Source of the DNA: Polyangiaceae bacterium
GTDB taxonomy: Bacteria > Myxococcota_A > Polyangia > Polyangiales > Polyangiaceae
Length of the DNA stretch: 64,000 nt
Direction of reading: 5' to 3'
Assembly (NCBI GenBank): GCA_049521295.1
Contig: JBEKOY010000008.1
Coordinates: 15,403-79,402 of the forward strand
Part shown: positions 10,422-39,199 of the stretch, piece after piece
How positions within the stretch are numbered: the first letter of the stretch is position 1
How the letters are laid out: the number at the start of each line of letters is the position of its first letter
The notes under the pieces: model-generated
Database searches by the model: none
Told to the model about the DNA's origin: nothing
What the model saw: only the letters and a program-made list of their open reading frames with translations
Made by a program: the position numbers and the translations under genes

Positions 10422-12128
10422 ATGCGTATGGCCAACAACAACCGCTTGGGCGAACTGCTCGTCCGCGAGAAACTCATCTCTTTATCGCAGCTTCGTCGCG
10501 CACAGGAAGAGCAGCAGAAGTCCGGGCAGAACTTGGGTTACACGCTCGCCAAGCTCGGATACGTGAGCGACGAGGAGATCACCGGATTTCTTAGCCAACA
10601 GTACAAAGTCCCGACGATCAATCTCGAGGAGTACGAGATCGATCTCGACATCCTGAAGCTCGTGCCGAAGGAGCCGTGCGAGCGCCACAAGGTCGTTCCC
10701 GTGTCGCGCACCGGCAACTCGCTCATCGTCGCCATGGCGGATCCGACGAACCTAAACGCCATCGACGACCTCAAATTCCTGACCGGCTACAACATCGAGC
10801 CGGTCATCGCGAGCGAGACCGCGATTCAGAACGCGATCGAGAAATACTACAACGCCGGGCCTTCGTACGACGAGGTCATGGCGGGCTTCGACGAAGCCGA
10901 GATCGAATTCAGCGGCGAGGAAGAGGACATCAGTCTGCTCGAGCTCGAGAAGGCCAGCGAAGACGCACCGGTCGTCAAGCTCGTCAACATGATGCTGCTC
11001 AACGCGATCAAGAAGGGAGCGAGCGACATCCACATTGAGCCGTACGAGAAGAAGCTGCGGGTGCGCTATCGGGTCGACGGCGTGTTGGCCGAGGAGATGA
11101 CGCCGCCGCTCAAGCTGAAGAATGCGATCACGAGCCGCATCAAGATTATGGCATCTCTCGACATCGCCGAACGGCGCTTGCCGCAAGACGGGCGAATCAA
11201 GCTCAAGCTTGGCAAGAGCCGCGAAATGGATTTCCGCGTCTCGGTCATGCCCACGCTGTGGGGCGAAAAAGTGGTCATGCGGTTGCTCGACAAGGGCAAC
11301 TTGCAGCTCGATATGGCAAAGCTCGGCTTCGACCCGAAGCCGCTCGAAGACTTCAAATGGGCCATCAACCAGCCGTGGGGGATGGTGCTTGTCACGGGCC
11401 CGACCGGCTCGGGCAAAACGACGACGCTCTACTCGGCGCTGTCGGATCTCAACAAGGTCGCGCACAACATCAGCACCGCGGAAGATCCGGTCGAGTACAA
11501 CCTGCACGGGATCAACCAGGTGCAGATGCACGACGAAATCGGCCTCAACTTCGCAATGGCGCTCCGCGCGTTCCTGAGGCAGGACCCGGACATCATCATG
11601 GTTGGCGAGATTCGAGACTTCGAAACCGCCGAGATCGCCGTCAAGGCCGCATTGACCGGGCACATGGTTTTGTCGACGCTGCATACGAACGATGCGCCCG
11701 CGACGATTTCGCGCTTGCTCAACATGGGAGTCGAGCCATTCCTCATCACGGCGAGCGTGAATCTCGTGCTCGCGCAGCGGCTGGCTCGCAAGATCTGCAA
11801 CGACTGCAAGCAGCCGATGAAGTACGAGCGCAAAATCCTCGAGGACTGCGGATTTTCGCCCGAACAGCTCGCGAACGCGAAGCTGTCGAAGGGGGCCGGC
11901 TGTCGAACGTGCAGCGGCAGCGGGTACAAGGGGCGGGTCGCGCTTTACGAGGTGATGCGGTTCTCCGACCACCTGAAGGAGATGGTGTTGCAGGGGGCAT
12001 CGACAGCGGAGTTAAAGATCGGCGCCACGAAGAACGGAATGAGCACGCTTCGGGCGAGCGGCATCAAGAAAATCCTCGATGGAGTCACGACGCCCGAAGA
12101 AATCATGCGCGTAACCATGTCCGATTGA
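10422..12128 (+). CDS. pilB: type IV pilus assembly ATPase PilB (GspE family)
   Basis: The N-terminus RLGELLVREKLISLSQLRRAQEEQQKSG is closely M. xanthus PilB-like. Walker A GPTGSGKTTT and the C-terminal tetracysteine CNDC...CRTC are present. ATG 10428 is an alternative start. Confidence 0.95.
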   Translation: MRMANNNRLGELLVREKLISLSQLRRAQEEQQKSGQNLGYTLAKLGYVSDEEITGFLSQQYKVPTINLEEYEIDLDILKLVPKEPCERHKVVPVSRTGNSLIVAMADPTNLNAIDDLKFLTGYNIEPVIASETAIQNAIEKYYNAGPSYDEVMAGFDEAEIEFSGEEEDISLLELEKASEDAPVVKLVNMMLLNAIKKGASDIHIEPYEKKLRVRYRVDGVLAEEMTPPLKLKNAITSRIKIMASLDIAERRLPQDGRIKLKLGKSREMDFRVSVMPTLWGEKVVMRLLDKGNLQLDMAKLGFDPKPLEDFKWAINQPWGMVLVTGPTGSGKTTTLYSALSDLNKVAHNISTAEDPVEYNLHGINQVQMHDEIGLNFAMALRAFLRQDPDIIMVGEIRDFETAEIAVKAALTGHMVLSTLHTNDAPATISRLLNMGVEPFLITASVNLVLAQRLARKICNDCKQPMKYERKILEDCGFSPEQLANAKLSKGAGCRTCSGSGYKGRVALYEVMRFSDHLKEMVLQGASTAELKIGATKNGMSTLRASGIKKILDGVTTPEEIMRVTMSD

Positions 12129-12135
12129 AGGACCG

Positions 12136-13260
12136 ATGAGCCAGCCTGCCGAATCCAAAGTCAATCTCCACCAGCTTCTCCGGACGATGGTCGAGAAGGG
12201 CGCGAGCGACATGCACATCACGACCGGCACGCCGCCCTTGCTGCGCGTCGACGGCAGCATCGTGCCGCTCAAGCTGCCCCCGCTCGGTCCGGTTGACACG
12301 AAGCAGCTGTGCTTTTCGGCGTTGAGCGAGGAGCAGCGAGCTCACTTCGAGAAGCACAACGAGCTCGACCTCTCGTTCGGTATCAAATCGCTGTCGCGGT
12401 TTCGCGCGAACATCTTCACACAGCGGGGCGCGGTCGCGGGTGCCTTCCGCACCATTCCCTTCAAAATTTTGAGTTTCGACGAGCTCGGACTGCCCCCCGT
12501 GGTCGCCGAGTTCGCGAACAAACCCAATGGACTCGTGCTGGTCACGGGTCCCACCGGGTCGGGCAAATCGACGACACTCGCGGCGATGATTGACAAAATC
12601 AACTGCGAGCAGAGGCTGCACATCATTACCGTCGAAGACCCGATCGAGTATCTTCACCCGCACAAGCTGTCGGTCGTCAATCAGCGCGAAGTCGGCGCCG
12701 ATACGGAGGGCTTCAAGCAGGCTCTCAAGTACGTTCTGCGGCAGGATCCCGACGTCGTGCTGGTTGGCGAGATGCGCGACCTCGAGACGATCGAAGCGGC
12801 GCTCACGATCGCCGAAACCGGCCATCTCGTCTTCGCGACGCTGCATACCAACGGGGCCATTTCCACGATTAACCGGATCATCGATGTATTTCCGTCGCAT
12901 CAGCAGCCTCAGATCCGAGCGAAGCTGTCTTTTGTGCTTCAGGGCGTGATATCGCAGCAGCTGTTGCCGCGGCACAACGCGCCCGGGCGCGTCCTCGCGC
13001 TCGAGGTGCTCGTGCCGAACCAGGCAGTGCGCAATTTGATCCGCGACGACAAGGTGCATCAGGTCTATTCGCAAATGCAGGTCGGCCAGGACAAATACTC
13101 GATGCAGACACTGAATCAGAGCCTGTTTTCTCTCTTTCAGAAGCGGCTCATCTCGCAGGAGGAAGCGACGTCACGCTCGGTCGAGCCCGAGGAGTTCCGC
13201 ATGATGATGGAGGGGCGCACAACGATGCTGAGTTCGGGGGCGCCTCCGGCACGAAGGTAG
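12136..13260 (+). CDS. pilT: twitching-motility retraction ATPase PilT
   Basis: NLHQLLRTMVEKGASDMHITTGTPPLLRVDG, Walker A GPTGSGKSTT, and the AIRNLIRE-like motif AVRNLIRDDK. Lies 7 nt after pilB. Confidence 0.95.
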   Translation: MSQPAESKVNLHQLLRTMVEKGASDMHITTGTPPLLRVDGSIVPLKLPPLGPVDTKQLCFSALSEEQRAHFEKHNELDLSFGIKSLSRFRANIFTQRGAVAGAFRTIPFKILSFDELGLPPVVAEFANKPNGLVLVTGPTGSGKSTTLAAMIDKINCEQRLHIITVEDPIEYLHPHKLSVVNQREVGADTEGFKQALKYVLRQDPDVVLVGEMRDLETIEAALTIAETGHLVFATLHTNGAISTINRIIDVFPSHQQPQIRAKLSFVLQGVISQQLLPRHNAPGRVLALEVLVPNQAVRNLIRDDKVHQVYSQMQVGQDKYSMQTLNQSLFSLFQKRLISQEEATSRSVEPEEFRMMMEGRTTMLSSGAPPARR

Positions 13261-27473: not shown

Positions 27474-28676
27474 ATGAGCGCGAATCGAGTCCTGATCGCT
27501 ACGGCAGTGCTTTCCGCGCTGTCCTGGCTCTTGCATCGGTACGTCTGGGCGCGTCTTCTCCGGGATGCGATGTGGTCTGAGCCGTGGCGCACGGGGCTTA
27601 CCGTCGGAGTCTTCGCACTGGGCGCGCTGATCCCGGTCGCGTTCTTGGCCATCCGATTTCTTCCGCGCGCGGTTCACGTGCCGATCGCGTGGGTGGCCTA
27701 CACGTGGATGGGCTTCTCGCTGTACTTGCTGCTCTTGACGGCGACATTCGATGCGGCGCGCGGTGTCGCCGCTCTCACGCGGACGCGGCCCCTCGACCCG
27801 GAACGACGTATCGCGTTGTCTCGCGCGATCGCCAAGATCGTGGTGGCAACGGCGGGTCTCATTGGACTGGGTGGCCTTGCGAACGTGGCGCGCGGGTTCG
27901 TGCTGCGCCGAGTGCAGGTGCCCATCGCCAAACTGCCTTCGCGTGCGTCCGGCTATTGCATCGTCCAGATCACGGACGTGCACGTGGGGCCGACCATCGG
28001 TCGAGACTTCGTCGACGCCATGGTGAGGGCGACCAATGCTCTTACGCCCGACCTGGTCGTCATCACGGGCGACTTGGTCGACGGAAGCGTCGAGCAGCTG
28101 CGGCACCTTGTCGAGCCGTTGCGCGAGCTGCGAGCGAAGGACGGTGTGTTCTTCGTGACGGGCAATCACGAATACTATTCTGGTGCGGACGAGTGGATTG
28201 CCCACTTGGGGCAACTCGGGATTCGCGTCCTCCGAAACGAGAGGGTCGCCATCCGCGACGCCTTCGATCTGGCGGGCGTCGACGATGCGAGCGCGAACCG
28301 GATGCTGGCCCACCACGGACAAGACGTGGCGCGGGCGCTCTTCGGTCGCGACATGGATCGCCCCGTCGTGCTGCTTGCCCACCAGCCCAAGGCACTGAAG
28401 GACGCGTTGGCCGCTCGCGTCGACCTGCAACTTTCGGGACACGTGCACGGCGGGCAGATGTTTCCGTTCAACTGGCTCGCGCGGATCGATCAGCCACTCA
28501 TTGCAGGGCTCTATCGAGTGGAGCAGACGTGGGTCTACGTCAGCACGGGGACGGGCTACTGGGGTCCGCCGATGCGGGTCGGCCCCCGAGCGGAGCTGAC
28601 GCGCATCGAGCTGGTGGCGATGTTGGATCGCGATGCCGACTTGGGTCCACGCTCCGCATTGGGGACTCGGGGCTAA
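27474..28676 (+). CDS. membrane-bound calcineurin-like metallophosphoesterase
   Basis: About four N-terminal TM helices, then the DVHVG, GDLVD, GNHEY and GHVHGG motifs. Confidence 0.8.
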   Translation: MSANRVLIATAVLSALSWLLHRYVWARLLRDAMWSEPWRTGLTVGVFALGALIPVAFLAIRFLPRAVHVPIAWVAYTWMGFSLYLLLLTATFDAARGVAALTRTRPLDPERRIALSRAIAKIVVATAGLIGLGGLANVARGFVLRRVQVPIAKLPSRASGYCIVQITDVHVGPTIGRDFVDAMVRATNALTPDLVVITGDLVDGSVEQLRHLVEPLRELRAKDGVFFVTGNHEYYSGADEWIAHLGQLGIRVLRNERVAIRDAFDLAGVDDASANRMLAHHGQDVARALFGRDMDRPVVLLAHQPKALKDALAARVDLQLSGHVHGGQMFPFNWLARIDQPLIAGLYRVEQTWVYVSTGTGYWGPPMRVGPRAELTRIELVAMLDRDADLGPRSALGTRG

Positions 28677-30415
28677 GCGTCCTCGTCGCCGAAAAGGGAA
28701 ATTTGAGGTCCGCTCGCTCGACGGGACCGTGCGCTCCGGCGGGGAGGGGCGTGCTCGCGGTGCCCAGAGGCCACCTGCGCCGCAAAGATGGTCTCGACGG
28801 CGGCGATGCGATCGGCCTGCTCCGCAGTCTTGTCGTCGCGCACGCGTACGATGCGCGGCAAGCGTAGCGCAAAGCCGCTCGAGTGGCGCGCGGAGCGCTG
28901 GGCGCCGTCGAAGGCGACTTCGATCACCACTTCGGGGCGCACGAGCCGCACGGCCCCGCGGACCTCGACCGTCATCGCGACCAACCGCCGGGTCATCGCA
29001 TCGATTTCTTGGTCGGTCAGGCCACTGTAGGCCTTGCCAATGGGCACGAGATCGCCGTTTCGCCAGACCGCAAACGTGTAGTCACTGAGCGCCCCAGCCC
29101 GCCGGCCGTGTCCCTCTTCGGCAGCGACGATGACAACGTCCAATGTGGCATGAGCCTTTTTGACTTTGATCCAAGAATGGCCCCGACTCCCGGCTTCGTA
29201 GGGTCCGTCGGCACGCTTGAGGACGAGGCCTTCGTGACCCCGAGCCCGCGCCGCATCGAACGCCGCGTCGAGCGCCCGATCGAGCGATAGATGAGGAGAA
29301 AGCTCCGAGACCGCGTGGATCACAATGGCCGACCGTTGCGTCGCGAGGAGTGCCTCGAGACGGGCGCGTCGATCGCGCCATGGCAGGTGGATGATGGACC
29401 CAGAACCATCGGCCAGAAGGTCGAACGCGACCAGCGCCACCGGTGTCTGCCGGATGTCTTTGTCCGACGGTCGCGACTTCTTGAGACGGGCCTGCAACGT
29501 CTGGAAGGGTCTCGGGCGCCCGAATGGCCCGATTGCGACAATCTCGCCGTCGATGACGACCGACGTGGTGCAGTCCTGCAGTGCGTCGACGATCTCGGGG
29601 AACGCGTGGGTGACCCGATCCAGTCCACGCGCAAAAACGGCGACTTTACCGTCTTCCGTCCGGTGGACCTGAGCGCGCACGCCGTCGATCTTGTCCTCCA
29701 CGATGAATGCGTCGGCCGCGATCGCTGCTGAGCCTGTCTCGAGCGGCGTTGCGAGCATGAACGCCACCGGCCGCCCCACTGCGAGGCGTGCTTCGTCGAG
29801 TTTGCCCTGGTGCGCGAGGACCGCCAGCTCCCCGACGTCGGCGATGTGTGCGGCCGCTTTCCGCACGAGAGCGGGACTGGCTTCGAACGCGCGTGCGATG
29901 GCTCCGTGCACGACGCCCTCTTGCGCTCCGATGCGCATACCACCTCCGATCGCCTTGGCCAGGTACTTCGTTTCGAGGGGGGTTGCGCGCGCGAATATCG
30001 CGTCCAGGATGGCACGCTTCGATGCTCTCCCGGGTTCACTCGCGAGAGCGTTGGCGAGCTCGAAGACGTCGGCCAGTCGGACTCCTTCACGCTCCCAAGC
30101 GTTCTCCACGCGGCCGGCCAGAAGCGCGAACGCTTCAGCCAGCTCGCCTGCCGCGCGCGCGCACGCGACGACGATTGGGTCATCGAATCCCGTTGCCGCC
30201 CGCACGACGTCGAGTAGGAGCGATCCTCCGACGCCAAGCGCTCGGCCGTCGCCGATCGGCAGGAGGCGGCCCACGGCGATGCGGCTCGCCGTTGCGAGTG
30301 CCGTCTCGTCGCCTTCGCGAGCGATCTCGCGAAGAGCGCCCGCAATCGCTTCTTCTTTGCCGATGCGCGAGCGCCGAGCTCGCGCTAGGTCGAGGGCGGC
30401 GGCGAGTCGCCTCAC
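28673..30415 (-). CDS. ATP-dependent DNA ligase (bacterial LigB/Lig1-like)
   Basis: Motif I VEDKIDGVR (adenylation Lys), VVIDGEIVA, EGLVLKR and WIKVKK. Start re-set to GTG 30415, overlapping the upstream gene stop (GTGA). The ORF-track 843-aa form is an extension. Confidence 0.85.
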   Translation of the reverse strand: MRRLAAALDLARARRSRIGKEEAIAGALREIAREGDETALATASRIAVGRLLPIGDGRALGVGGSLLLDVVRAATGFDDPIVVACARAAGELAEAFALLAGRVENAWEREGVRLADVFELANALASEPGRASKRAILDAIFARATPLETKYLAKAIGGGMRIGAQEGVVHGAIARAFEASPALVRKAAAHIADVGELAVLAHQGKLDEARLAVGRPVAFMLATPLETGSAAIAADAFIVEDKIDGVRAQVHRTEDGKVAVFARGLDRVTHAFPEIVDALQDCTTSVVIDGEIVAIGPFGRPRPFQTLQARLKKSRPSDKDIRQTPVALVAFDLLADGSGSIIHLPWRDRRARLEALLATQRSAIVIHAVSELSPHLSLDRALDAAFDAARARGHEGLVLKRADGPYEAGSRGHSWIKVKKAHATLDVVIVAAEEGHGRRAGALSDYTFAVWRNGDLVPIGKAYSGLTDQEIDAMTRRLVAMTVEVRGAVRLVRPEVVIEVAFDGAQRSARHSSGFALRLPRIVRVRDDKTAEQADRIAAVETIFAAQVASGHREHAPPRRSARSRRASGPQISLFGDEDA

Positions 30416-31443
30416 GAGGATCCTCGGTCGTCGATCGGTCCGAGCGCGAGGGCGTCGGCGTTCACACCCCGGCGACGCAGCTCGTGAGCCAAAGGTCGAG
30501 CCTGGCCGCGCGTGACGTAGACCGAGCTCGCGCCGGTCGAGGACACGAGCGCCAGCCACCGATCGAAGTCGGCCAGATCCGCGAACACGAACCCCGCGTC
30601 GGCTTTCTTTTGGGCCAACGCCGCATCGAGCCCTGCCCAGCCCGAGGCGTAGGCTACGGCGTGTCTTTTCGGGGCCTGCCGTTCGGCCACCGGACTGTCG
30701 GCCCGAGTGAGGACGACCGCGCCGCGCCGCGGCCCGGCGCAGTCTCCAACGACGCCGATTGGAGCACCGATCGTCTCGTACGCCGTGCAGGCGCGCAGGA
30801 CTTGCGCGTCGGCCACGACGGCAAGCCCGCGATTCGCGAGCGCGTGTGCGAGCGATTGCGCCGGCCCAGGGGTTTGTACGAGGACGAAAGGTGTGCAGTC
30901 CTCGGCGAGACGCGCAGCGCACCACCCGCCGATGTCCGCAGCGACCCGCTGCATGGGTCTGAAGCGAAATATGGGAAGGCCGAACGCGGAAGTGATGACG
31001 AGCTCGTCGCATGCCACAGCTTCTCCCGGGGGCCGTGTAGCGTCGGGCTCGCTGCTCCAATCGCCCGTGTAGACCAGGCGCCCGCGAGGATGGTCGATGA
31101 CCAGCTGCGATCCACCGAGGACATGTCCCGCATGGGCGATGGACAAGTGGGCCGTGCCGCCGCCGTACCGAGATCCGATGGCCCATGGAATGGTTTCGCC
31201 CCAAGCCATGGGGTGCGCTTGGCTGAACGTCCAGCCGAGCGCCTCCGAGAGTGCGATCGTCTCGGGCGAGGCCAAGGCTCTGCTGCGGGTCGCGCTCGCT
31301 GCCGCGTGAGCGTGCGAGACGAACGCGGCCGTTTCGGGACCGACGGGCGGCACGCCGGTCGGATCGAGCCAGAGATCGAGAGCACGAACGAAGAGGCCGC
31401 GGTCACCCAGAACGACACCGAGGGGTCCGCCTTGGGCGCTCAC
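30412..31443 (-). CDS. MBL-fold ligase-associated exonuclease-like protein (metal motif 2 degenerate)
   Basis: Start re-set to GTG 31443. Sequence includes LWLDP...FVSHAHAAAS, then GHVLGGSQ and VYTGDWS, and ends ...FDRWLALVSSTGASSVYVTRG. Translationally coupled to the ligase. Confidence 0.7.
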   Translation of the reverse strand: MSAQGGPLGVVLGDRGLFVRALDLWLDPTGVPPVGPETAAFVSHAHAAASATRSRALASPETIALSEALGWTFSQAHPMAWGETIPWAIGSRYGGGTAHLSIAHAGHVLGGSQLVIDHPRGRLVYTGDWSSEPDATRPPGEAVACDELVITSAFGLPIFRFRPMQRVAADIGGWCAARLAEDCTPFVLVQTPGPAQSLAHALANRGLAVVADAQVLRACTAYETIGAPIGVVGDCAGPRRGAVVLTRADSPVAERQAPKRHAVAYASGWAGLDAALAQKKADAGFVFADLADFDRWLALVSSTGASSVYVTRGQARPLAHELRRRGVNADALALGPIDDRGSS

Positions 31444-33054: not shown

Positions 33055-33987
33055 ATGTTCAACAAGCCTGTCTCCTTAGCCGTCACGATCCTGGGAACGA
33101 CCGTCTTTGCCTGGATGGCGGCTTGCTCGTCCTCCAAAGAGACCGCGAACAACAGCAGCAGCAACACGGGTGGCGCCACGAGCAGCAGCAGCAGCACCTC
33201 TTTGGGCAGCGGCACCAGCAGCAGCAGCAGCAGCACGGGCAGCAGCACCAGCGGCGGCAACTCCGCGTCGACGCTCATCGACGATGCTGCCAACCCCTCG
33301 GGCCAGATTTCGCTTCGTCCGACTGGTGGGTATACGGCAGGCTACTGGTTTACCACCATCAACGACACAGGCGGGACCATCACGCCCGAGCCTGCGGCGA
33401 GCGGCGGATCGTGGTCGTATACGACGGTGCCGAGCCCCGCGGACGCTTCCATTACGATGGCGGCCTGCATCTCCGGCACGACGTCCCCCACGCTCTACAG
33501 CGAAGCGGGCGAAGGCTTCAATTGGGCGCTGGAGCCCATCGACGCCGCGGCCGACTCGGGGGTCCAAGCAGCCGCAGTCCAATACGATATCAGCGCGTAC
33601 ACGGGCATCTCGTTCTGGGCATACGTTCCGCCGAGCTCGCCGGCCGGTACGCAAATGGTCCGCGTGCTCTTTCCCGACAAGACGTCGGATCCACGCGGCG
33701 GCGTGTGCAGCTTGGACGCCTCCACCACGCCCTGCTCCCCCGACACGGCCCAGTGCATGGTCTGTTACGACAGCTGGGAAGATACGCCCACCTTTAACCC
33801 CGGCTGGCAGTTCGTGAGGATCGAATTTAGCGAGCTGGTGCAACTCATGTTTGGTGAGATCGAAGCATCTTTCGACGCTCAGCACTCCTACGGAGTGACC
33901 TTCCAGGCGAACGGGCCGCAGCAGGCCGATGCCGGGGCGGTCCCGTTCGACTTTTGCATTGCGGACATCAATTTTATAACGAACTGA
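33055..33987 (+). CDS. lipoprotein with Ser-rich linker and C-terminal beta-rich (CBM-like) domain
   Basis: Lipobox-like FAWMAAC, a roughly 50-aa Ser/Gly/Thr linker, then an aromatic/Cys-containing domain with no firm family call. RBS AAGGGAAG. Confidence 0.65.
   Translation: MFNKPVSLAVTILGTTVFAWMAACSSSKETANNSSSNTGGATSSSSSTSLGSGTSSSSSSTGSSTSGGNSASTLIDDAANPSGQISLRPTGGYTAGYWFTTINDTGGTITPEPAASGGSWSYTTVPSPADASITMAACISGTTSPTLYSEAGEGFNWALEPIDAAADSGVQAAAVQYDISAYTGISFWAYVPPSSPAGTQMVRVLFPDKTSDPRGGVCSLDASTTPCSPDTAQCMVCYDSWEDTPTFNPGWQFVRIEFSELVQLMFGEIEASFDAQHSYGVTFQANGPQQADAGAVPFDFCIADINFITN
33154..33250. repeat. AGC-rich trinucleotide (Ser codon) microsatellite tracts
   Basis: Runs of (agc)3, (agc)5 and (agc)6 interrupted by short spacers, all inside the lipoprotein linker. 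Confidence 0.8.
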
Positions 33988-34077: not shown

Positions 34078-34641
34078 GTGTCGACCGATGATCTCGCGCT
34101 CACCACGCGGCTATGGTTTGCATGGCTCTGCTTCTTCAAGGTTCTCTTCGACGCTCGTTTTGCGGCTCGACTCTGGGGCGCTCGCCGGGCTCTTCCGCCG
34201 TCACGCGCCGAGGCTCCAACGCCGTCGCCGGTGCCCGCGACGATCTCGGTGGCGGTCCCGGAGCGCGCGGGCGCGCTGGAGCTGCTCGCGCTTTTGCAGC
34301 GAGAGGGTCGGCTCGTCGACTTCCTCCAGCAAGACATCGCCGCGTTCTCCGACGCCGACGTCGGTATCGCCGCGCGGGTGGTGCACGAGGGTTGCCGTCG
34401 CGCTCTGCGTGCCCACGCGAGCGTCGAGCCGGTGCGGCCAGAAGGGGAGGGGCAGCGGGTCACGTTGGCCGCCGGTTTCGATGCCGATGCCGTGAAGCTG
34501 GTGGGCGACGTGAAGGGTCAGCCGCCGTACGCCGGCGTGTTGAGGCACCGAGGCTGGCGGGTCCTAACGATCGAGCTGCCGCAACGCGTGGGGGAGCACG
34601 ACCCCCGCATCGTGGCGCCCGCCGAAGTCGAGCTCGGGTGA
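34078..34641 (+). CDS. DUF2760-like protein (N-terminal hydrophobic helix)
   Basis: 187 aa with a GTG start. N-terminus LTTRLWFAWLCFFKVLFDARFAARLW, then LELLALLQREGRLVDFLQQDI...ARVVHEGC. I recall this as the DUF2760 pattern that accompanies Hsp70 paralogs. The stop overlaps the next ATG (GTGATG). Confidence 0.6.
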   Translation: MSTDDLALTTRLWFAWLCFFKVLFDARFAARLWGARRALPPSRAEAPTPSPVPATISVAVPERAGALELLALLQREGRLVDFLQQDIAAFSDADVGIAARVVHEGCRRALRAHASVEPVRPEGEGQRVTLAAGFDADAVKLVGDVKGQPPYAGVLRHRGWRVLTIELPQRVGEHDPRIVAPAEVELG

Positions 34642-36452
34642 TGCGCTTCGCCGCCGGGATCGACCTGGGCACCACCCACTGCGCGATCGCGGTCGCCCCG
34701 CTCGAAGTCGAAGGCGCGCGGCCGGACGTGGTGCGCGTTCCGCAGCTCGTCGCGCGGGGGCAGCTCGAAGCTCTCGCGCTTTTGCCGTCGTTTCTCTATT
34801 TCGCGCATGCGAGCGAAGGCCCGCAGGCGTTGCCCTGGGACGCCCATCGCGCGTTCGCCGTAGGGGAGTATGCGCGCGCCCGAGGGGCCGACACGCCGAC
34901 GCGCGTCGTCGCGAGCGCCAAGAGCTGGTTGTCTCATCCGTCCGTCGATCGCCGCGCGGGCATTCTTCCGGTCGGCGCTCCCGACGACGTCGCGAAGATC
35001 TCTCCGGTCGAGACCTCGAAGAGGTACCTCGATCACCTCGTGCAGGCGTTTGAGGCGCAGTTCGGCCCCGACGCCCGTCTTCCCGATCAGGATGTCGTCG
35101 TAACGGTGCCTGCGTCCTTCGACGCCGCGGCGCGTGAGCTGACGGTTGAAGCGGCCCGACAGGCCGGGTTCGAGCACCTCACCCTGCTCGAGGAGCCGCA
35201 GGCGGCTCTCTACGCCTGGACGCTCGCGATGGGCGATGCATGGCGCACCCACGTGCGACCGGGCGACGTTGTGCTGGTGATCGACGTGGGCGGCGGAACG
35301 ACTGACTTTTCCGCGATCGCCGCCATCGAGAAGGACGGCGCGCTCGAACTGGTGCGTGTTGCCGTGGGCGATCACATCCTGCTGGGCGGCGACAACATGG
35401 ACCTCGCGTTGTCACACCTCGTGCGCCACAAGCTTGAATCCGACGGTAATGTTGTCGATCGCTTCCAAGCTGCGAGTCTGGTCCACGCGTGTCGGATTGC
35501 GAAGGAGCGTCTGCTGGGCGATGCGTCGCTCGACCACGCGCCCCTCGCCGTGGCTTCGCGTGGGTCGTCGCTGCTCGGCGCGACGCTTCGTTCTGACCTG
35601 ACCCGCGACGACTTGACCCGTGTGATCGTCGAGGGCTTTTTTCCCCGCGTCGATGCCGATGCTCGACCGGCCACACGCTCTCGCTCCGGGCTGACGCAGC
35701 TCGGGTTGCCCTATGCGGCCGATGCGGCCGTGACGCGCCATCTCGCTGCATTTCTGCGCCGGCAAGCGCGCGCGATCGAGCCCTTCGCCGGCCGCGCGGG
35801 CGGCGCTCTGTTGCACCCGACCGCCGTTCTCTTCAATGGCGGTGTGATGAAGGCCCCGAGTTTGCGGGCGCGGGTGATCGAAACACTGAACGCGTGGATC
35901 CAACAAGACGGGGGCGATGTCGTCCGCGTTCTGCAAGGCGCCGACCTCGACCTCGCGGTGGCTCGGGGCGCTTGTATGTACGCCCTCGTCCGCCGCGGCA
36001 GGGGGCTCCGCATTCGGGGAGGGACGGCGCGTGCCTATTACGTCGGAATCGAGAGCGCTGTCCCGGCGGTCCCCGGTCTCGCGCCTCCCGTGAGCGCGAT
36101 GTGCGTGGCTCCCTTCGGCATGGAAGAGGGGACCGCCGCCGAGCTTCCGCCCCATGAGCTGGGCGTGGTTGTTGGCGAGCGCTGCACGTTTCGGTTCTTC
36201 GGATCCAGCGTACGGCGGTCCGACGGCGCCGGAACCATCCTCGAAGAGTGGCGAGCCGACGAGCTCGAGGAGCTTCCGGCCATCGAGGTGACGCTTCCTG
36301 CGGACGGACGTCGCGAAGGAGATGTCGTGCCCGTGCGACTCCGACCCCAAGTGACCGAGGTCGGGACGCTGCGGCTGGAGGCCGAGCCGCTTCAGCCGCT
36401 GAAAGCCGGCGAACTGTGGCAGGTCGAGCTGAGCGTACGCTCGAGCGCCTGA
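34641..36452 (+). CDS. non-canonical Hsp70-family protein (paralog 1)
   Basis: 603 aa from ATG 34641. Motifs GIDLGTTHCAIA (phosphate 1), VIDVGGGTTDFS (phosphate 2), LLGGDNMDLAL and LFNGGVMKAP (adenosine). The C-terminus is beta-rich and SBD-like. The ORF-track start 34113 is an extension. Confidence 0.85.
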   Translation: MRFAAGIDLGTTHCAIAVAPLEVEGARPDVVRVPQLVARGQLEALALLPSFLYFAHASEGPQALPWDAHRAFAVGEYARARGADTPTRVVASAKSWLSHPSVDRRAGILPVGAPDDVAKISPVETSKRYLDHLVQAFEAQFGPDARLPDQDVVVTVPASFDAAARELTVEAARQAGFEHLTLLEEPQAALYAWTLAMGDAWRTHVRPGDVVLVIDVGGGTTDFSAIAAIEKDGALELVRVAVGDHILLGGDNMDLALSHLVRHKLESDGNVVDRFQAASLVHACRIAKERLLGDASLDHAPLAVASRGSSLLGATLRSDLTRDDLTRVIVEGFFPRVDADARPATRSRSGLTQLGLPYAADAAVTRHLAAFLRRQARAIEPFAGRAGGALLHPTAVLFNGGVMKAPSLRARVIETLNAWIQQDGGDVVRVLQGADLDLAVARGACMYALVRRGRGLRIRGGTARAYYVGIESAVPAVPGLAPPVSAMCVAPFGMEEGTAAELPPHELGVVVGERCTFRFFGSSVRRSDGAGTILEEWRADELEELPAIEVTLPADGRREGDVVPVRLRPQVTEVGTLRLEAEPLQPLKAGELWQVELSVRSSA

Positions 36453-36466
36453 GCGAGCGGGGCGCG

Positions 36467-39199
36467 ATGTCGGCTCGTTACGCCGTCGGCATCGACCTCG
36501 GCACGACGCACACCGTGGTGGCCTGGGCGCCTCTCGAGGGGGCCGATGCGCCGCAGGTCTTCGACGTCTCGCAGCTTGTTGGACCGAGTGCGGTCGAACT
36601 TCGACCGCTCTTTCCATCCATGCTTTACGCGCCGGCCGAGAGCGAGCGGTTCGAGGATCCATTCGGCGACGCTCCATGGGCGCTCGGAGAAATAGCGCGG
36701 CGTCGCGGGGCCGAGGTTCCGGGACGCACCGTCGTATCGGCGAAAAGCTGGCTCGTCCATCCCAGCGTGGATCGGCTGGCCGCCATTTTGCCATGGGCCG
36801 CGGCAGAAGGGTGCCCCCGCTGCTCGCCGGTCGACGCGGCGACCCGACTGCTCGTGCACGTGCGCCGTGCGTGGGATGCTCGCTGGCCGGCCTCGCCGCT
36901 CAGCGAACAGGAACTGGTGCTGACCGTTCCTGCGTCGTTCGACGAAGTCGGCCGAGAGCTCTCGCTCGAAGCGGCGCGGCGTGCCGGCCTTTCGCCCAAG
37001 CTACTCGAGGAGCCGGCGGCGGCGTTTTACGATTGGATGTCGCGTGCCGGCACCGACGGGGTCAATCGCCTGATCCACGAAACGTCCGGCGACGCGCGGG
37101 TGCTCGTCGTCGACGTCGGTGGAGGCACGACGGACTTGTCGCTGATTCGTGTGGTCGGGCCCGAGCGAATCACGCGTGTCGCCGTCGGACCGCATCTGCT
37201 TTTGGGGGGCGACAACATGGATCTGGCGATTGCACACGCCTGCGAGCCCAGGCTCCAAGCGACAGGCAAGCTCGATGCGTCGCGTTTCGCACAGTTGGTC
37301 GTCGCGTGCCGGGCAGCCAAAGAGACGTTGCTGAGCGATGGCTCGCCGGAGGTGGCGCCTGTCACCGTGCTCGGGGTCGGCGCGGCACTGGTGGGCTCCG
37401 GCCTCACCACGCCTCTGTTGCGCCACGAGGTCGAGCGACTCGTGCTCGATGAGTTCCTTCCGCTCGTCCCGGCCGATGCCCGGCCGCAGCGCGCGCGCAG
37501 TGCGCTCGTTGCGTTTGGGCTCCCGTACGAGCGCGACGTGGCGGTCACGCGCCACATCGCGGCGTTTCTCGGCCGGCACGTGGGGCCCGGCGAATGGCCG
37601 AACGCCGTTCTTCTGAATGGCGGGGTTTTCCGCTCCGCGCGCATCGCCGGTCGGGTCCTCGAGGTCCTTCGGGCTTGGCGGGGCGGAGTCGTGGCGCATT
37701 TGCCCGGCGCGGACCCCGATCTCGCCGTGGCGTGCGGAGCGGTCGCGTACGCACGGGCGCGCCTTGGACACGGCATGCGCATCGGCGGCGGCTCGGCGCG
37801 CGGTTACTTCGTCGGAGTGACCGCGGAGGGGTCTGGCCCTCGCGCGGTATGCGTTGTCCCCCGCGGCGCCGAGGAGGGAACGGTCCACGTCGCGCGCGGC
37901 CGAACGTTCGCCATCGCTGTCGGGCGGCCCGTCCGCTTCGAGCTTTTCGAGAGCGATGACGTCCATGCACGTGCGGGCGCTGTCGTCGAGGTTGACTCCG
38001 TCCGCTTTGCGCGTTTGCCTCCGATCGCCACGACCTTCACCGCCAGGGTCGGAGGCGACGTCCGCGTCGTCATCGAGGGGGAGCTCACGCCCGTCGGCAC
38101 CGTCGATCTCGCGTGCGTCGAGACGAGCGATCCCAGCGACGGCGGCGTCGCGGATGTCCTGGCTCCGGTTGCGGATGAACCTGCGGCGCGCCGATTCCGG
38201 CTCGCCTTTCAGCTTCGCCGTGACGAGGGGGAACCGGCGAGTCGCCCGCCGTCACCCGTGCCGATGCGCCGGATGGACGCGGTGCTCGATTTGATTGAAG
38301 GGGTGTACGGCAAACCCCGCAGCGGCGGGGCCGGACGCGAAGTCAAGGACCTGGTCCGCGAGCTCGAACGCCTGCTTGGCGAGCGCAGCGAATGGACCAC
38401 CGAGATCAACCGCGCGATTTACGACTCCCTGGCGCCGAAGGCAGCCGCGCGTCGCCGCTCTCCGGACCACGAGCGCGTTTTCTGGCTGCTCGCCGGCTGG
38501 TGCATTCGCCCCGGTTTTGGCTATCCGGACGACGAGGTTCGAGTTGCCGGGCTTGTCCCGCGCTTCGAGGAGCGACTCGCATTTCCGGGTGAGATTCGTG
38601 CCTGGCAGCAATTTTGGATCGCCTGGCGGCGCGTCGCGGGCGGGCTCGACGAGCCGACGCAGACGGGGATGCGCGACAGCGTCGACGCGCACCTCGCGCC
38701 ATCCGACGCGAGGCGGCGTCCCAAGAAGGCATGGCTGGCGCTCGACGACGCGCTCGACATGGCCGCGACTCTCGAGCGGGTTGCGCCCGCTCGCCGCGCG
38801 GAGCTCGGCGGGTGGGTCTTGGAGCGCACGTGGACTGATCGCGATCCGCGTTTGTGGTCCGCCATCGGTCGGCTGGGCGCGCGCGCGCCGGTCTACGCGA
38901 GCGCCCACCACGTCGTGGCACCGCTCGTCGCGGAGCGGTGGCTGGATCACCTGCTGCGGGAGAAGTGGGGCTCGATTCCCACGGCCACGCAAGCGGCGCT
39001 CCGGCTCGCGCGCATGACCGGCGACCGCTCGCGCGACATCGGCGAACCGATGCGCCGCGAGGTCGAGCAGCGCCTGATGGCGGCGGGCGCGAAGCCGGAG
39101 CAGGTCATCACCATGCGAGAAGTCGTGCCGGTCGACGAGATCGAGCGAGCCGCGTTCTTTGGCGACGCGCTACCGCTCGGTTTGCGGTTGGTCCGCTAG
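36467..39199 (+). CDS. non-canonical Hsp70-family protein (paralog 2) with long C-terminal extension
   Basis: 910 aa from ATG 36467, 14 nt after paralog 1. Motifs GIDLGTTHTVVA, VVDVGGGTTDLS, LLGGDNMDLAI and LLNGGVFRSA. A roughly 310-aa Trp/Arg-rich helical C-terminal region follows, with no recognised family. Confidence 0.85.
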   Translation: MSARYAVGIDLGTTHTVVAWAPLEGADAPQVFDVSQLVGPSAVELRPLFPSMLYAPAESERFEDPFGDAPWALGEIARRRGAEVPGRTVVSAKSWLVHPSVDRLAAILPWAAAEGCPRCSPVDAATRLLVHVRRAWDARWPASPLSEQELVLTVPASFDEVGRELSLEAARRAGLSPKLLEEPAAAFYDWMSRAGTDGVNRLIHETSGDARVLVVDVGGGTTDLSLIRVVGPERITRVAVGPHLLLGGDNMDLAIAHACEPRLQATGKLDASRFAQLVVACRAAKETLLSDGSPEVAPVTVLGVGAALVGSGLTTPLLRHEVERLVLDEFLPLVPADARPQRARSALVAFGLPYERDVAVTRHIAAFLGRHVGPGEWPNAVLLNGGVFRSARIAGRVLEVLRAWRGGVVAHLPGADPDLAVACGAVAYARARLGHGMRIGGGSARGYFVGVTAEGSGPRAVCVVPRGAEEGTVHVARGRTFAIAVGRPVRFELFESDDVHARAGAVVEVDSVRFARLPPIATTFTARVGGDVRVVIEGELTPVGTVDLACVETSDPSDGGVADVLAPVADEPAARRFRLAFQLRRDEGEPASRPPSPVPMRRMDAVLDLIEGVYGKPRSGGAGREVKDLVRELERLLGERSEWTTEINRAIYDSLAPKAAARRRSPDHERVFWLLAGWCIRPGFGYPDDEVRVAGLVPRFEERLAFPGEIRAWQQFWIAWRRVAGGLDEPTQTGMRDSVDAHLAPSDARRRPKKAWLALDDALDMAATLERVAPARRAELGGWVLERTWTDRDPRLWSAIGRLGARAPVYASAHHVVAPLVAERWLDHLLREKWGSIPTATQAALRLARMTGDRSRDIGEPMRREVEQRLMAAGAKPEQVITMREVVPVDEIERAAFFGDALPLGLRLVR

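Follow-up and report, generated by a model that had tools for sequence, protein, structure and literature searches.

A conserved DUF2760-Hsp70-Hsp70 cassette from a Polyangiaceae genome as a probable dedicated, non-canonical Hsp70 system

How might two diverged Hsp70 proteins function when neither a J-protein nor a recognizable GrpE is encoded beside them, and what is the role of the small protein translated immediately ahead of them? This question is posed by three co-directional open reading frames (ORFs) at 34078-39199 of the window, by which we mean the whole 64,000-nucleotide stretch of Polyangiaceae DNA analysed here (contig JBEKOY010000008.1, positions 15,403 to 79,402). We consider it probable, at roughly 0.6, that this cassette is a dedicated, self-contained and non-canonical Hsp70 system encoded by one operon. 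Both Hsp70s keep every catalytic residue, and the long paralog at least keeps the substrate-binding basket; neither has the helical lid or the DVLLLD linker of canonical DnaK, and the long paralog has an alpha-solenoid domain, DUF3731, in place of the lid. The small gene, which encodes a DUF2760 protein, always lies immediately upstream of the short Hsp70 gene and is translationally coupled to it. The cassette comprises the following features, in which NBD and SBD denote the nucleotide-binding and substrate-binding domains of Hsp70:

34078-34641, plus strand: gene 1 (g1), DUF2760 protein of 187 amino acids (aa), GTG start
34099-34188, plus strand: N-terminal segment of g1, residues ~8-37, LTTRLWFAWLCFFKVLFDARFAARLWGARR, predicted to form two helices
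34638-34643, plus strand: g1/g2 junction GTGATG, in which the g1 stop TGA (34639-34641) overlaps the g2 ATG (34641-34643) by 1 nt
34641-36452, plus strand: gene 2 (g2), short Hsp70 paralog of 603 aa; NBD at residues ~1-452, atypical linker GLRIRGGTARAYYVGIE, and a lid-less beta domain homologous to that of g3
36453-36466, plus strand: g2/g3 spacer of 14 nt
36467-39199, plus strand: gene 3 (g3), long Hsp70 paralog of 910 aa, N-terminus MSARYAVGIDLGTT; NBD at residues 1-~434, SBD-beta-like basket at ~436-600, basic linker, DUF3731 alpha-solenoid at 665-908
37772-38266, plus strand: beta domain of g3, residues ~436-600, with the fold of the Hsp70 substrate-binding basket (Foldseek)
38459-39190, plus strand: DUF3731 domain of g3, residues 665-908, all-helical and solenoid-like, at the position of the Hsp70 lid

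A sequence-only reading of the window had described this three-gene cassette, its coordinates, the GTGATG overlap, the 14-nt gap and the ATPase motifs shared by the two Hsp70s, all of which we confirm; genes of the same three lengths (187, 603 and 910 aa) were also called by the Joint Genome Institute (JGI) on three near-identical metagenome contigs. The 1-nt overlap between the g1 stop and the g2 start implies that these genes are translationally coupled. A scan of 185,579 species genomes, with one genome per species, found DUF2760 encoded in at least 563 species, and the neighborhoods of the best 80 DUF2760 loci (~14 kb each) were then compared by tblastn and ORF clustering. A g2-type Hsp70 follows the DUF2760 stop immediately in all 78 loci with any downstream sequence, at a median gap of approximately 5 nt and in many cases at -4 or -1, an adjacency that is beyond chance. 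A g3-type Hsp70 bearing DUF3731 comes directly next in 48 of the 65 loci with enough room, and lies within the locus in 53 of them (five elsewhere). The co-occurrence of DUF2760 with such Hsp70 pairs, as stated in the sequence-only reading, holds across phyla. All-vs-all clustering of ORFs from the 80 loci returned no further conserved partner gene; apparent additional clusters were set aside as shadow ORFs on the antisense strand or as Ser/Thr kinases scattered without a fixed position. In pair-only loci the gene after g2 varies by genome (transglutaminase, MutS-like, SseB-like), and in seven Sorangium loci (L022, L024, L029, L041, L043, L044 and L075) the DUF2760 and short Hsp70 genes are followed by a transglutaminase-like gene in place of g3.

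The module spans Myxococcota and the Alpha-, Beta- and Gammaproteobacteria. Full trios are found among Myxococcota in Polyangiaceae, Archangium, Cystobacter, Vitiosangium, Paraliomyxa and Kofleriaceae, and among Gammaproteobacteria in Competibacteraceae, Ectothiorhodospiraceae and others. Further full trios lie on a Comamonadaceae megaplasmid and on a pair of Bradyrhizobium plasmids that are typed as conjugative, all three genes being annotated in RefSeq. On truncated contigs of metagenome-assembled genomes (MAGs), g1 and g2 occur together in Bdellovibrionales and Verrucomicrobiota, and the Bdellovibrionales contig also holds the start of g3. Four or more bacterial phyla, and plasmids as well, carry the module; DUF2760 itself was additionally found on Burkholderia and Caballeronia chromids. 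The plasmid settings are diverse. In Bradyrhizobium sp. CB82 (pCB82_1; L088, 6713-14327) groES-groEL lies ~1 kb downstream of the trio and an IS256 transposase gene upstream of it, while in B. barranii (pCC829_3; L085, 6273-12122) the trio adjoins trb transfer genes and is closely preceded by a MarR gene. Plasmid pTs485 of Thiodictyon syntrophicum (L086, 1-12321) carries the g1-g2 pair, without the long Hsp70, in a stretch resembling a defense island, amid DISARM/BREX-type anti-phage genes (encoding a DUF1156 protein and a PLD-domain protein) and genes for a VapC toxin, a Uma2 endonuclease and a TIR-domain protein.

What kind of Hsp70s are these? Both paralogs carry the motifs GIDLGTT, DVGGGTTD, LLGGDNMDLA and L(F/L)NGG; they share ~45% identity with each other over ~580 residues, and ~27-29% identity with DnaK in the NBD only. 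Matches to the Pfam HSP70 family (PF00012) exceed threshold in g2 (E=4e-20) and in g3, and cover only the N-terminal ~300 profile positions, which correspond to the NBD. Alignment of the NBDs to Escherichia coli DnaK with hhalign extends over residues ~2-384 (probability 99.2% for g2 and 99.4% for g3) and stops there. Equivalents of DnaK residues D8, K70, E171, D194, T199 and D201, together with the adenosine-site GG, are invariant among 71 g2 and 49-51 g3 orthologs, so selection maintains both proteins as ATPases. The DVLLLD interdomain linker couples canonical DnaK to J-proteins; in its place stand GLRIRGGTAR in g2 and GMRIGGGSAR in g3, which conform to a family motif, G-(L/M)-R-I-(R/G)-G-G-(T/S)-A-R...Y-(Y/F)-V-G, that is conserved in both paralogs and unrelated to DVLLLD. 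The J-domain contact positions R167/N170/T173 of DnaK align with T/E/Q in g2 and K/E/A in g3.

Assignment to known bacterial Hsp70 classes was attempted with NCBIfam models, against which the two proteins score 40-90 bits overall where cut-offs stand at 620-820. Both canonical DnaK (TIGR02350 / NF001413; g2 scores 64-65 bits and g3 41-42 bits, where the cut-offs are 648-823) and HscA (TIGR01991; 90 and 65 bits, against 708.55) were rejected as orthologs, although HscA and DnaK are the best NCBIfam models, and no HscC-specific model matched in the same comparison. The sequence-only reading was thus correct in placing both paralogs far from DnaK. Searches of PDB sequences with g2 and g3 returned Hsp70 NBDs only (E ~1e-9 to 1e-12), and no solved structure of this subfamily. 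Two unusually long relatives were also encountered: P0281 (1536 aa) is an in-frame fusion of a g2-like and a g3-like Hsp70, while P0288 (1499 aa) resembles a frameshift or assembly artefact at the g2-g3 junction.

Beyond the NBD, the architecture of the long paralog was modeled with AlphaFold2 (AF2) over residues 430-910, giving a beta sandwich followed by ~16 helices (mean predicted local distance difference test score, pLDDT, of 70.5; 78-94 in the beta domain). Foldseek matches the beta domain to the SBDs of HscA (1u00) and mortalin (3n8e), to BiP, to the DnaK C-terminus (4r5g) and to the SBD-beta of Ssa1, with probabilities of 0.98-1.00 and E-values from 4e-3 to 0.1, all above 1e-3. By its homology to g3, the short paralog would likewise consist of an NBD and a basket without a lid. 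The helical region that follows in g3 is a clear DUF3731 domain (Pfam PF12531, E=7e-71; 239.3 bits against a cut-off of 25, profile positions 1-248), C-terminal to the PF00012 match. Its invariant motifs are HER.FW.L.G.C.RPG.G and WRR..GGL, and its model yields only weak Foldseek matches to TPR, importin and ARM-type solenoids. A polyanion-binding role for this domain was considered and rejected, as it is only mildly basic (median pI 8.8).

The small protein g1 is a full-length member of DUF2760, as the sequence-only reading had suggested (Pfam PF10816, E=3e-49; 166.4 bits against a cut-off of 25), with residues 65-185 covering positions 4-124 of the 124-position profile. Homolog alignments and an AF2 model (pLDDT 71 overall, above 90 in the beta part) divide it into three parts: a conserved aromatic and basic N-terminal segment, a variable Pro/Ala-rich linker, and the C-terminal alpha+beta DUF2760 domain (65-185), modeled as helices followed by beta-strands. 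Clustering at 90% identity gave more than 6,000 groups among the candidates scored, and clustering at 50% identity (E<=1e-3) gave 1,907, the representatives of which share 43-61% identity. A Pfam search of long DUF2760 proteins for fused domains found none extra. The N-terminal segment is near-invariant in 40 homologs, and its aromatic/basic pattern, RLWFAWLCFFRVLFDxRFAARVW, is retained across phyla. The earlier description of this segment as a hydrophobic helix was stronger than its composition warrants: the best 19-residue Kyte-Doolittle mean is 1.14 and the Eisenberg <H> is ~0.5, which is no convincing transmembrane helix, and hydrophobicity lends no support to the proposal that the machine is membrane-tethered. 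Nor did hydrophobicity and hydrophobic moment support a transmembrane anchor, the segment being too polar and too short for a clear transmembrane helix.

Do these proteins have conventional co-chaperones nearby? No J-domain, HscB or GrpE was detected in the whole window (tblastn, E<=1), and none near the module in the 80 related loci save one sporadic J-domain match; nor was dnaK linked to the module in any of these loci. The sole J-domain-like match within 7 kb of the module comes from a Competibacteraceae MAG (L053 5180-5350, E=5.6e-5), where it precedes DUF2760 by ~1.7 kb. The earlier statement that no DnaJ or GrpE is encoded nearby thus stands where tblastn of the window is concerned, whereas its corollary, that a GrpE partner is lacking, may hold only in part, given a weak GrpE fold match of the DUF2760 model. 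When the g1 model was compared with PDB folds in Foldseek, GrpE accounted for all four top-ranking matches (E=0.05-0.18, probability 0.30-0.60, template modeling (TM) score 0.24-0.32; model pLDDT 71). The top match is Thermus thermophilus GrpE (3a6m_B; E=0.05, probability 0.60, 28% identity over 127 columns), and the others are human GrpEL1 (9blt_B and 9bls_B) and E. coli GrpE (1dkg_A). These matches deserve attention, since DnaK relies on GrpE as its cognate exchange factor and the model was built blind to gene context. That DUF2760 adopts a GrpE fold is, on this modeling, a possibility to be taken seriously at somewhat less than even odds.

Together, these observations suggest how the system might operate. 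DUF2760 would be an obligate cofactor of the short Hsp70, most plausibly a GrpE-like nucleotide-exchange or regulatory factor, and as such may regulate the nucleotide cycle of that paralog. The two Hsp70s could act together, by analogy with the Hsp70-Hsp110 or Ssz1-Ssb pairs, and the in-frame fusion P0281 supports such cooperation. DUF3731 might provide a surface on which a client or partner docks, and the whole may remodel a specific client without DnaJ, forming an accessory module of proteostasis or stress response that can be transferred horizontally. A more elaborate version is speculative, and we think it improbable as a whole: the trio would be a J-protein-independent two-Hsp70 machine in which DUF2760 is a highly diverged GrpE-type exchange factor for the short Hsp70, its conserved hydrophobic and basic N-terminal peptide serves as a tether that docks in an Hsp70 basket or on a membrane, and the long paralog activates or hands over clients via DUF3731. 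If true, this would constitute a bacterial analog of the Hsp70-Hsp110 partnership, spread by horizontal transfer.

Several points weigh against the main reading, that of a dedicated, self-contained system. A complex of the three proteins is suggested only by gene order, coupling and one fusion. Twelve loci, seven of them in Sorangium, hold g1 and g2 without an adjacent g3, and therefore the long paralog is not always needed locally. Sequence profiles (hhalign) do not recognize the beta domain of g2 or g3 as an SBD. The GrpE fold matches are sub-threshold, with every Foldseek E-value above 1e-3 and TM scores of ~0.25-0.3, and come from a mediocre model (mean pLDDT 71). Comparison of DUF2760 with GrpE profiles of 3, 123 and 83 sequences by hhalign gave probabilities of 0.1-0.3%; the richest of these set a 271-sequence DUF2760 profile against the 83-sequence GrpE profile, which drew on 80 diverse GrpE genes from metagenomes. 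A separate large protein search for GrpE had given mostly Enterobacteriaceae and Geobacillus sequences, of little additional diversity. GrpE was likewise not among the matches when PDB sequences were searched with a DUF2760 profile. As the fold matches are sub-threshold and the profile comparisons empty, a GrpE-like exchange function is retained as the leading but unproven role, and we regard it as doubtful at present. Homology between DUF2760 and GrpE at the level of sequence was rejected, all three hhalign comparisons being negative, and the Pfam GrpE family (PF01025) had no match in 30 DUF2760 proteins at E<=10.

Hints as to physiology come from other organisms, in which the orthology to the cassette genes is probable, from annotation and length only, and this too tempers the interpretation. 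In Vibrio cholerae, VC1373 and VC1374 are annotated as DnaK-related, and the operon listed as VC1373-1375 shows repression in biofilm (PMC9201469); HapR, a quorum-sensing regulator, acts directly on the VC1375 promoter to activate it (PMC10328515). Deletion of MXAN_5323, a 925-aa Hsp70 of Myxococcus xanthus, lowered sporulation and oxidative-stress resistance and left swarming motility and predation unchanged (PMC8265645).

The surroundings of the cassette bear on alternative explanations. The nearest relatives of the window are Polyangiaceae-type MAGs from peat and soil, and its GC content is ~62-70% in 2-kb windows. Scanning the cassette for promoters, terminators and Rfam families returned nothing above chance. 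Neighboring features are as follows:

10422-13260, plus strand: adjacent pilB-like (T2SSE and MshEN domains, 568 aa) and pilT-like (374 aa) ATPase genes
upstream of the cassette, minus strand: ATP-dependent DNA ligase, BacA/UppP, and small unknown ORFs
33055-33987, plus strand: Ser/Thr-rich lipoprotein gene, 90 nt before g1
downstream of the cassette, opposite strand, convergent: GNAT acetyltransferase, M16 peptidase, PpiD-like rotamase

The lipoprotein has a signal peptide ending in ...WMAAC and a long S/T/G linker, lacks a Pfam match, and is encoded with an unusual codon-position GC (0.48/0.60/0.81); its homologs adjoin the cassette in the closest relatives only. The ligase ORF (28673-31204, minus strand) carries a ~260-aa N-terminal extension; on near-identical contigs JGI called two genes in its stead, a 580-aa ligase and a 343-aa ORF without a Pfam match. 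An FHA-domain gene lies upstream of the pilB/pilT-like pair, and a gene for a 902-aa TPR protein lies downstream of it on the opposite strand.

Might the paralogs instead serve the housekeeping DnaK? A 2026 FEBS J review proposes, as a general hypothesis for bacterial DnaK derivatives, that they assist DnaK, and observes that in the genomes it analyzed the derivatives were seen only alongside bona fide DnaK (PMC13580251). Here g2 and g3 would be auxiliary co-chaperones that contact DnaK through their NBDs, as Hsp110 contacts Hsp70, and enhance exchange or disaggregation, with DUF2760 as a regulator. The loss of lid and canonical linker from both paralogs recalls the diverged linker of Hsp110, and an operon lacking a J-protein would suit such helpers. 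Yet the catalytic residues are all kept in both paralogs and the basket fold in g3 at least, the paralogs are paired with their own obligate small partner, and dnaK is unlinked to the module in all loci. Moreover, the trio moves on plasmids between hosts with different DnaKs, which fits a self-sufficient unit better. We therefore consider service to DnaK unlikely, if still worth weighing. A role in conflict or anti-phage defense, in which the Hsp70-like ATPase of the module, or at least of the DUF2760-Hsp70 pair, senses or remodels an invader protein, is more remote. Such a role is suggested by the pTs485 pair, which sits between DISARM/BREX-type, VapC, Uma2 endonuclease and TIR-domain genes, by the presence of the module on conjugative plasmids and beside an IS256 element, and by weak matches of g2 and g3 to the PADLOC candidate PDC-M61B (E=6e-4 and 3e-3). 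Those matches, however, span only a short ATPase-motif stretch, and g1 has no PADLOC match. Effector domains (nuclease, TIR, pore or protease) are neither within nor consistently beside the module, its flanks in the window and relatives are housekeeping genes (BacA, DNA ligase, PpiD, M16 peptidase), and the DUF2760 family is highly conserved (43-61% among 50% representatives), unlike fast-diversifying defense genes. On this balance a defensive function appears improbable.

On the premise that the M. xanthus stk locus also contains adjacent DnaK-like genes, and with pilB-pilT in the same window, the sequence-only reading had suggested kinship with that locus, so that the cassette would regulate exopolysaccharide (EPS) downstream of type IV pili. 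The myxobacterial StkA is indeed Hsp70-like and regulates EPS negatively (PMC4319316), and the pilB-like and pilT-like genes at 10422-13260 are real. They lie ~21 kb away, however, with many unrelated genes between, and type IV pilus genes are not a recurrent neighbor of the module in other genomes; many lineages outside the myxobacteria carry the trio without any recurring pilus or EPS gene beside it. The stk locus comprises StkA (a single 540-aa Hsp70), StkB (SCP2-like, 141 aa) and StkC (89 aa, PhaE-like), and so differs in gene content, on which point the proposed relation was wrong (PMC4319316). The unchanged swarming and predation of the MXAN_5323 deletion also count against it (PMC8265645). 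Locus comparison has already largely refuted this proposal, which we regard as very improbable. The preferred reading remains a dedicated two-Hsp70 system with its own small partner.

That the module exists is no novelty, as its gene families and their co-occurrence are already catalogued. Pfam lists PF10816 (DUF2760) and PF12531 (DUF3731, 'DNA-K related protein'), of which g1 and g3 are clear full-length members, in entries without function; RefSeq applies the product names 'DUF2760 domain-containing protein' and 'Hsp70 family protein', and annotates the same trio on plasmids. Searches of the available literature on DUF2760, DUF3731, PF10816 and PF12531 found no paper on the operon or its mechanism. 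Bacterial DnaK derivatives are numerous, with up to 15 per myxobacterial genome, and mechanism is known for HscA, and in part for HscC, only; specialists aware of the abundance of atypical Hsp70s would not find the module surprising. The FEBS J review describes derivatives of this sort as unexplored 'dark matter' (PMC13580251), to which the present module, being compact, widely distributed, fixed in gene order and provided with an obligate small partner, offers a tractable entry. It raises the questions of whether an Hsp70 cycle is possible without a J-protein, and whether paired Hsp70s and alternative exchange factors evolved in bacteria independently of eukaryotic Hsp110. Apparent carriers among model organisms, namely V. 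cholerae (VC1373-75), M. xanthus (the MXAN_5323 region) and Burkholderia, render these questions directly testable.

Comparison with known systems delimits what is distinctive. The stk locus likewise places an atypical, non-heat-shock Hsp70 in a small myxobacterial operon, but is set apart by its published gene content, which includes no second Hsp70, no DUF3731 and no reported DUF2760 (PMC4319316). With the DnaK-DnaJ-GrpE system the cassette shares the actin-fold NBD and its full set of catalytic residues, the beta-basket that follows this domain, and a small co-encoded partner that models closest, if weakly, to GrpE; it differs in lacking a lid, DVLLLD and a J-protein, in its RIRGG(T/S)AR linker, in encoding two Hsp70s rather than one, and in a partner without sequence similarity to GrpE. 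HscA-HscB and HscC-DjlC are, similarly, specialized non-heat-shock paralogs encoded with their own cofactors, but each has a dedicated J-protein and a short lid, whereas the cassette has neither J-protein nor isc genes. In the eukaryotic Hsp70-Hsp110 pair, and in the ribosome-associated complex (RAC; Ssz1-Zuo1 with Ssb), there are again two diverged paralogs, one of which is longer, with an altered linker and C-terminal domains. These eukaryotic paralogs act as a pair, and those of the cassette may, by analogy, do likewise; the eukaryotic systems use J-proteins, however, and Hsp110 has a lid and an SBD insertion where g3 has an alpha-solenoid. Relative to known Hsp70 systems, the new elements are the two paralogs, the absence of a J-protein, the alternative small cofactor, and the solenoid that replaces the lid.

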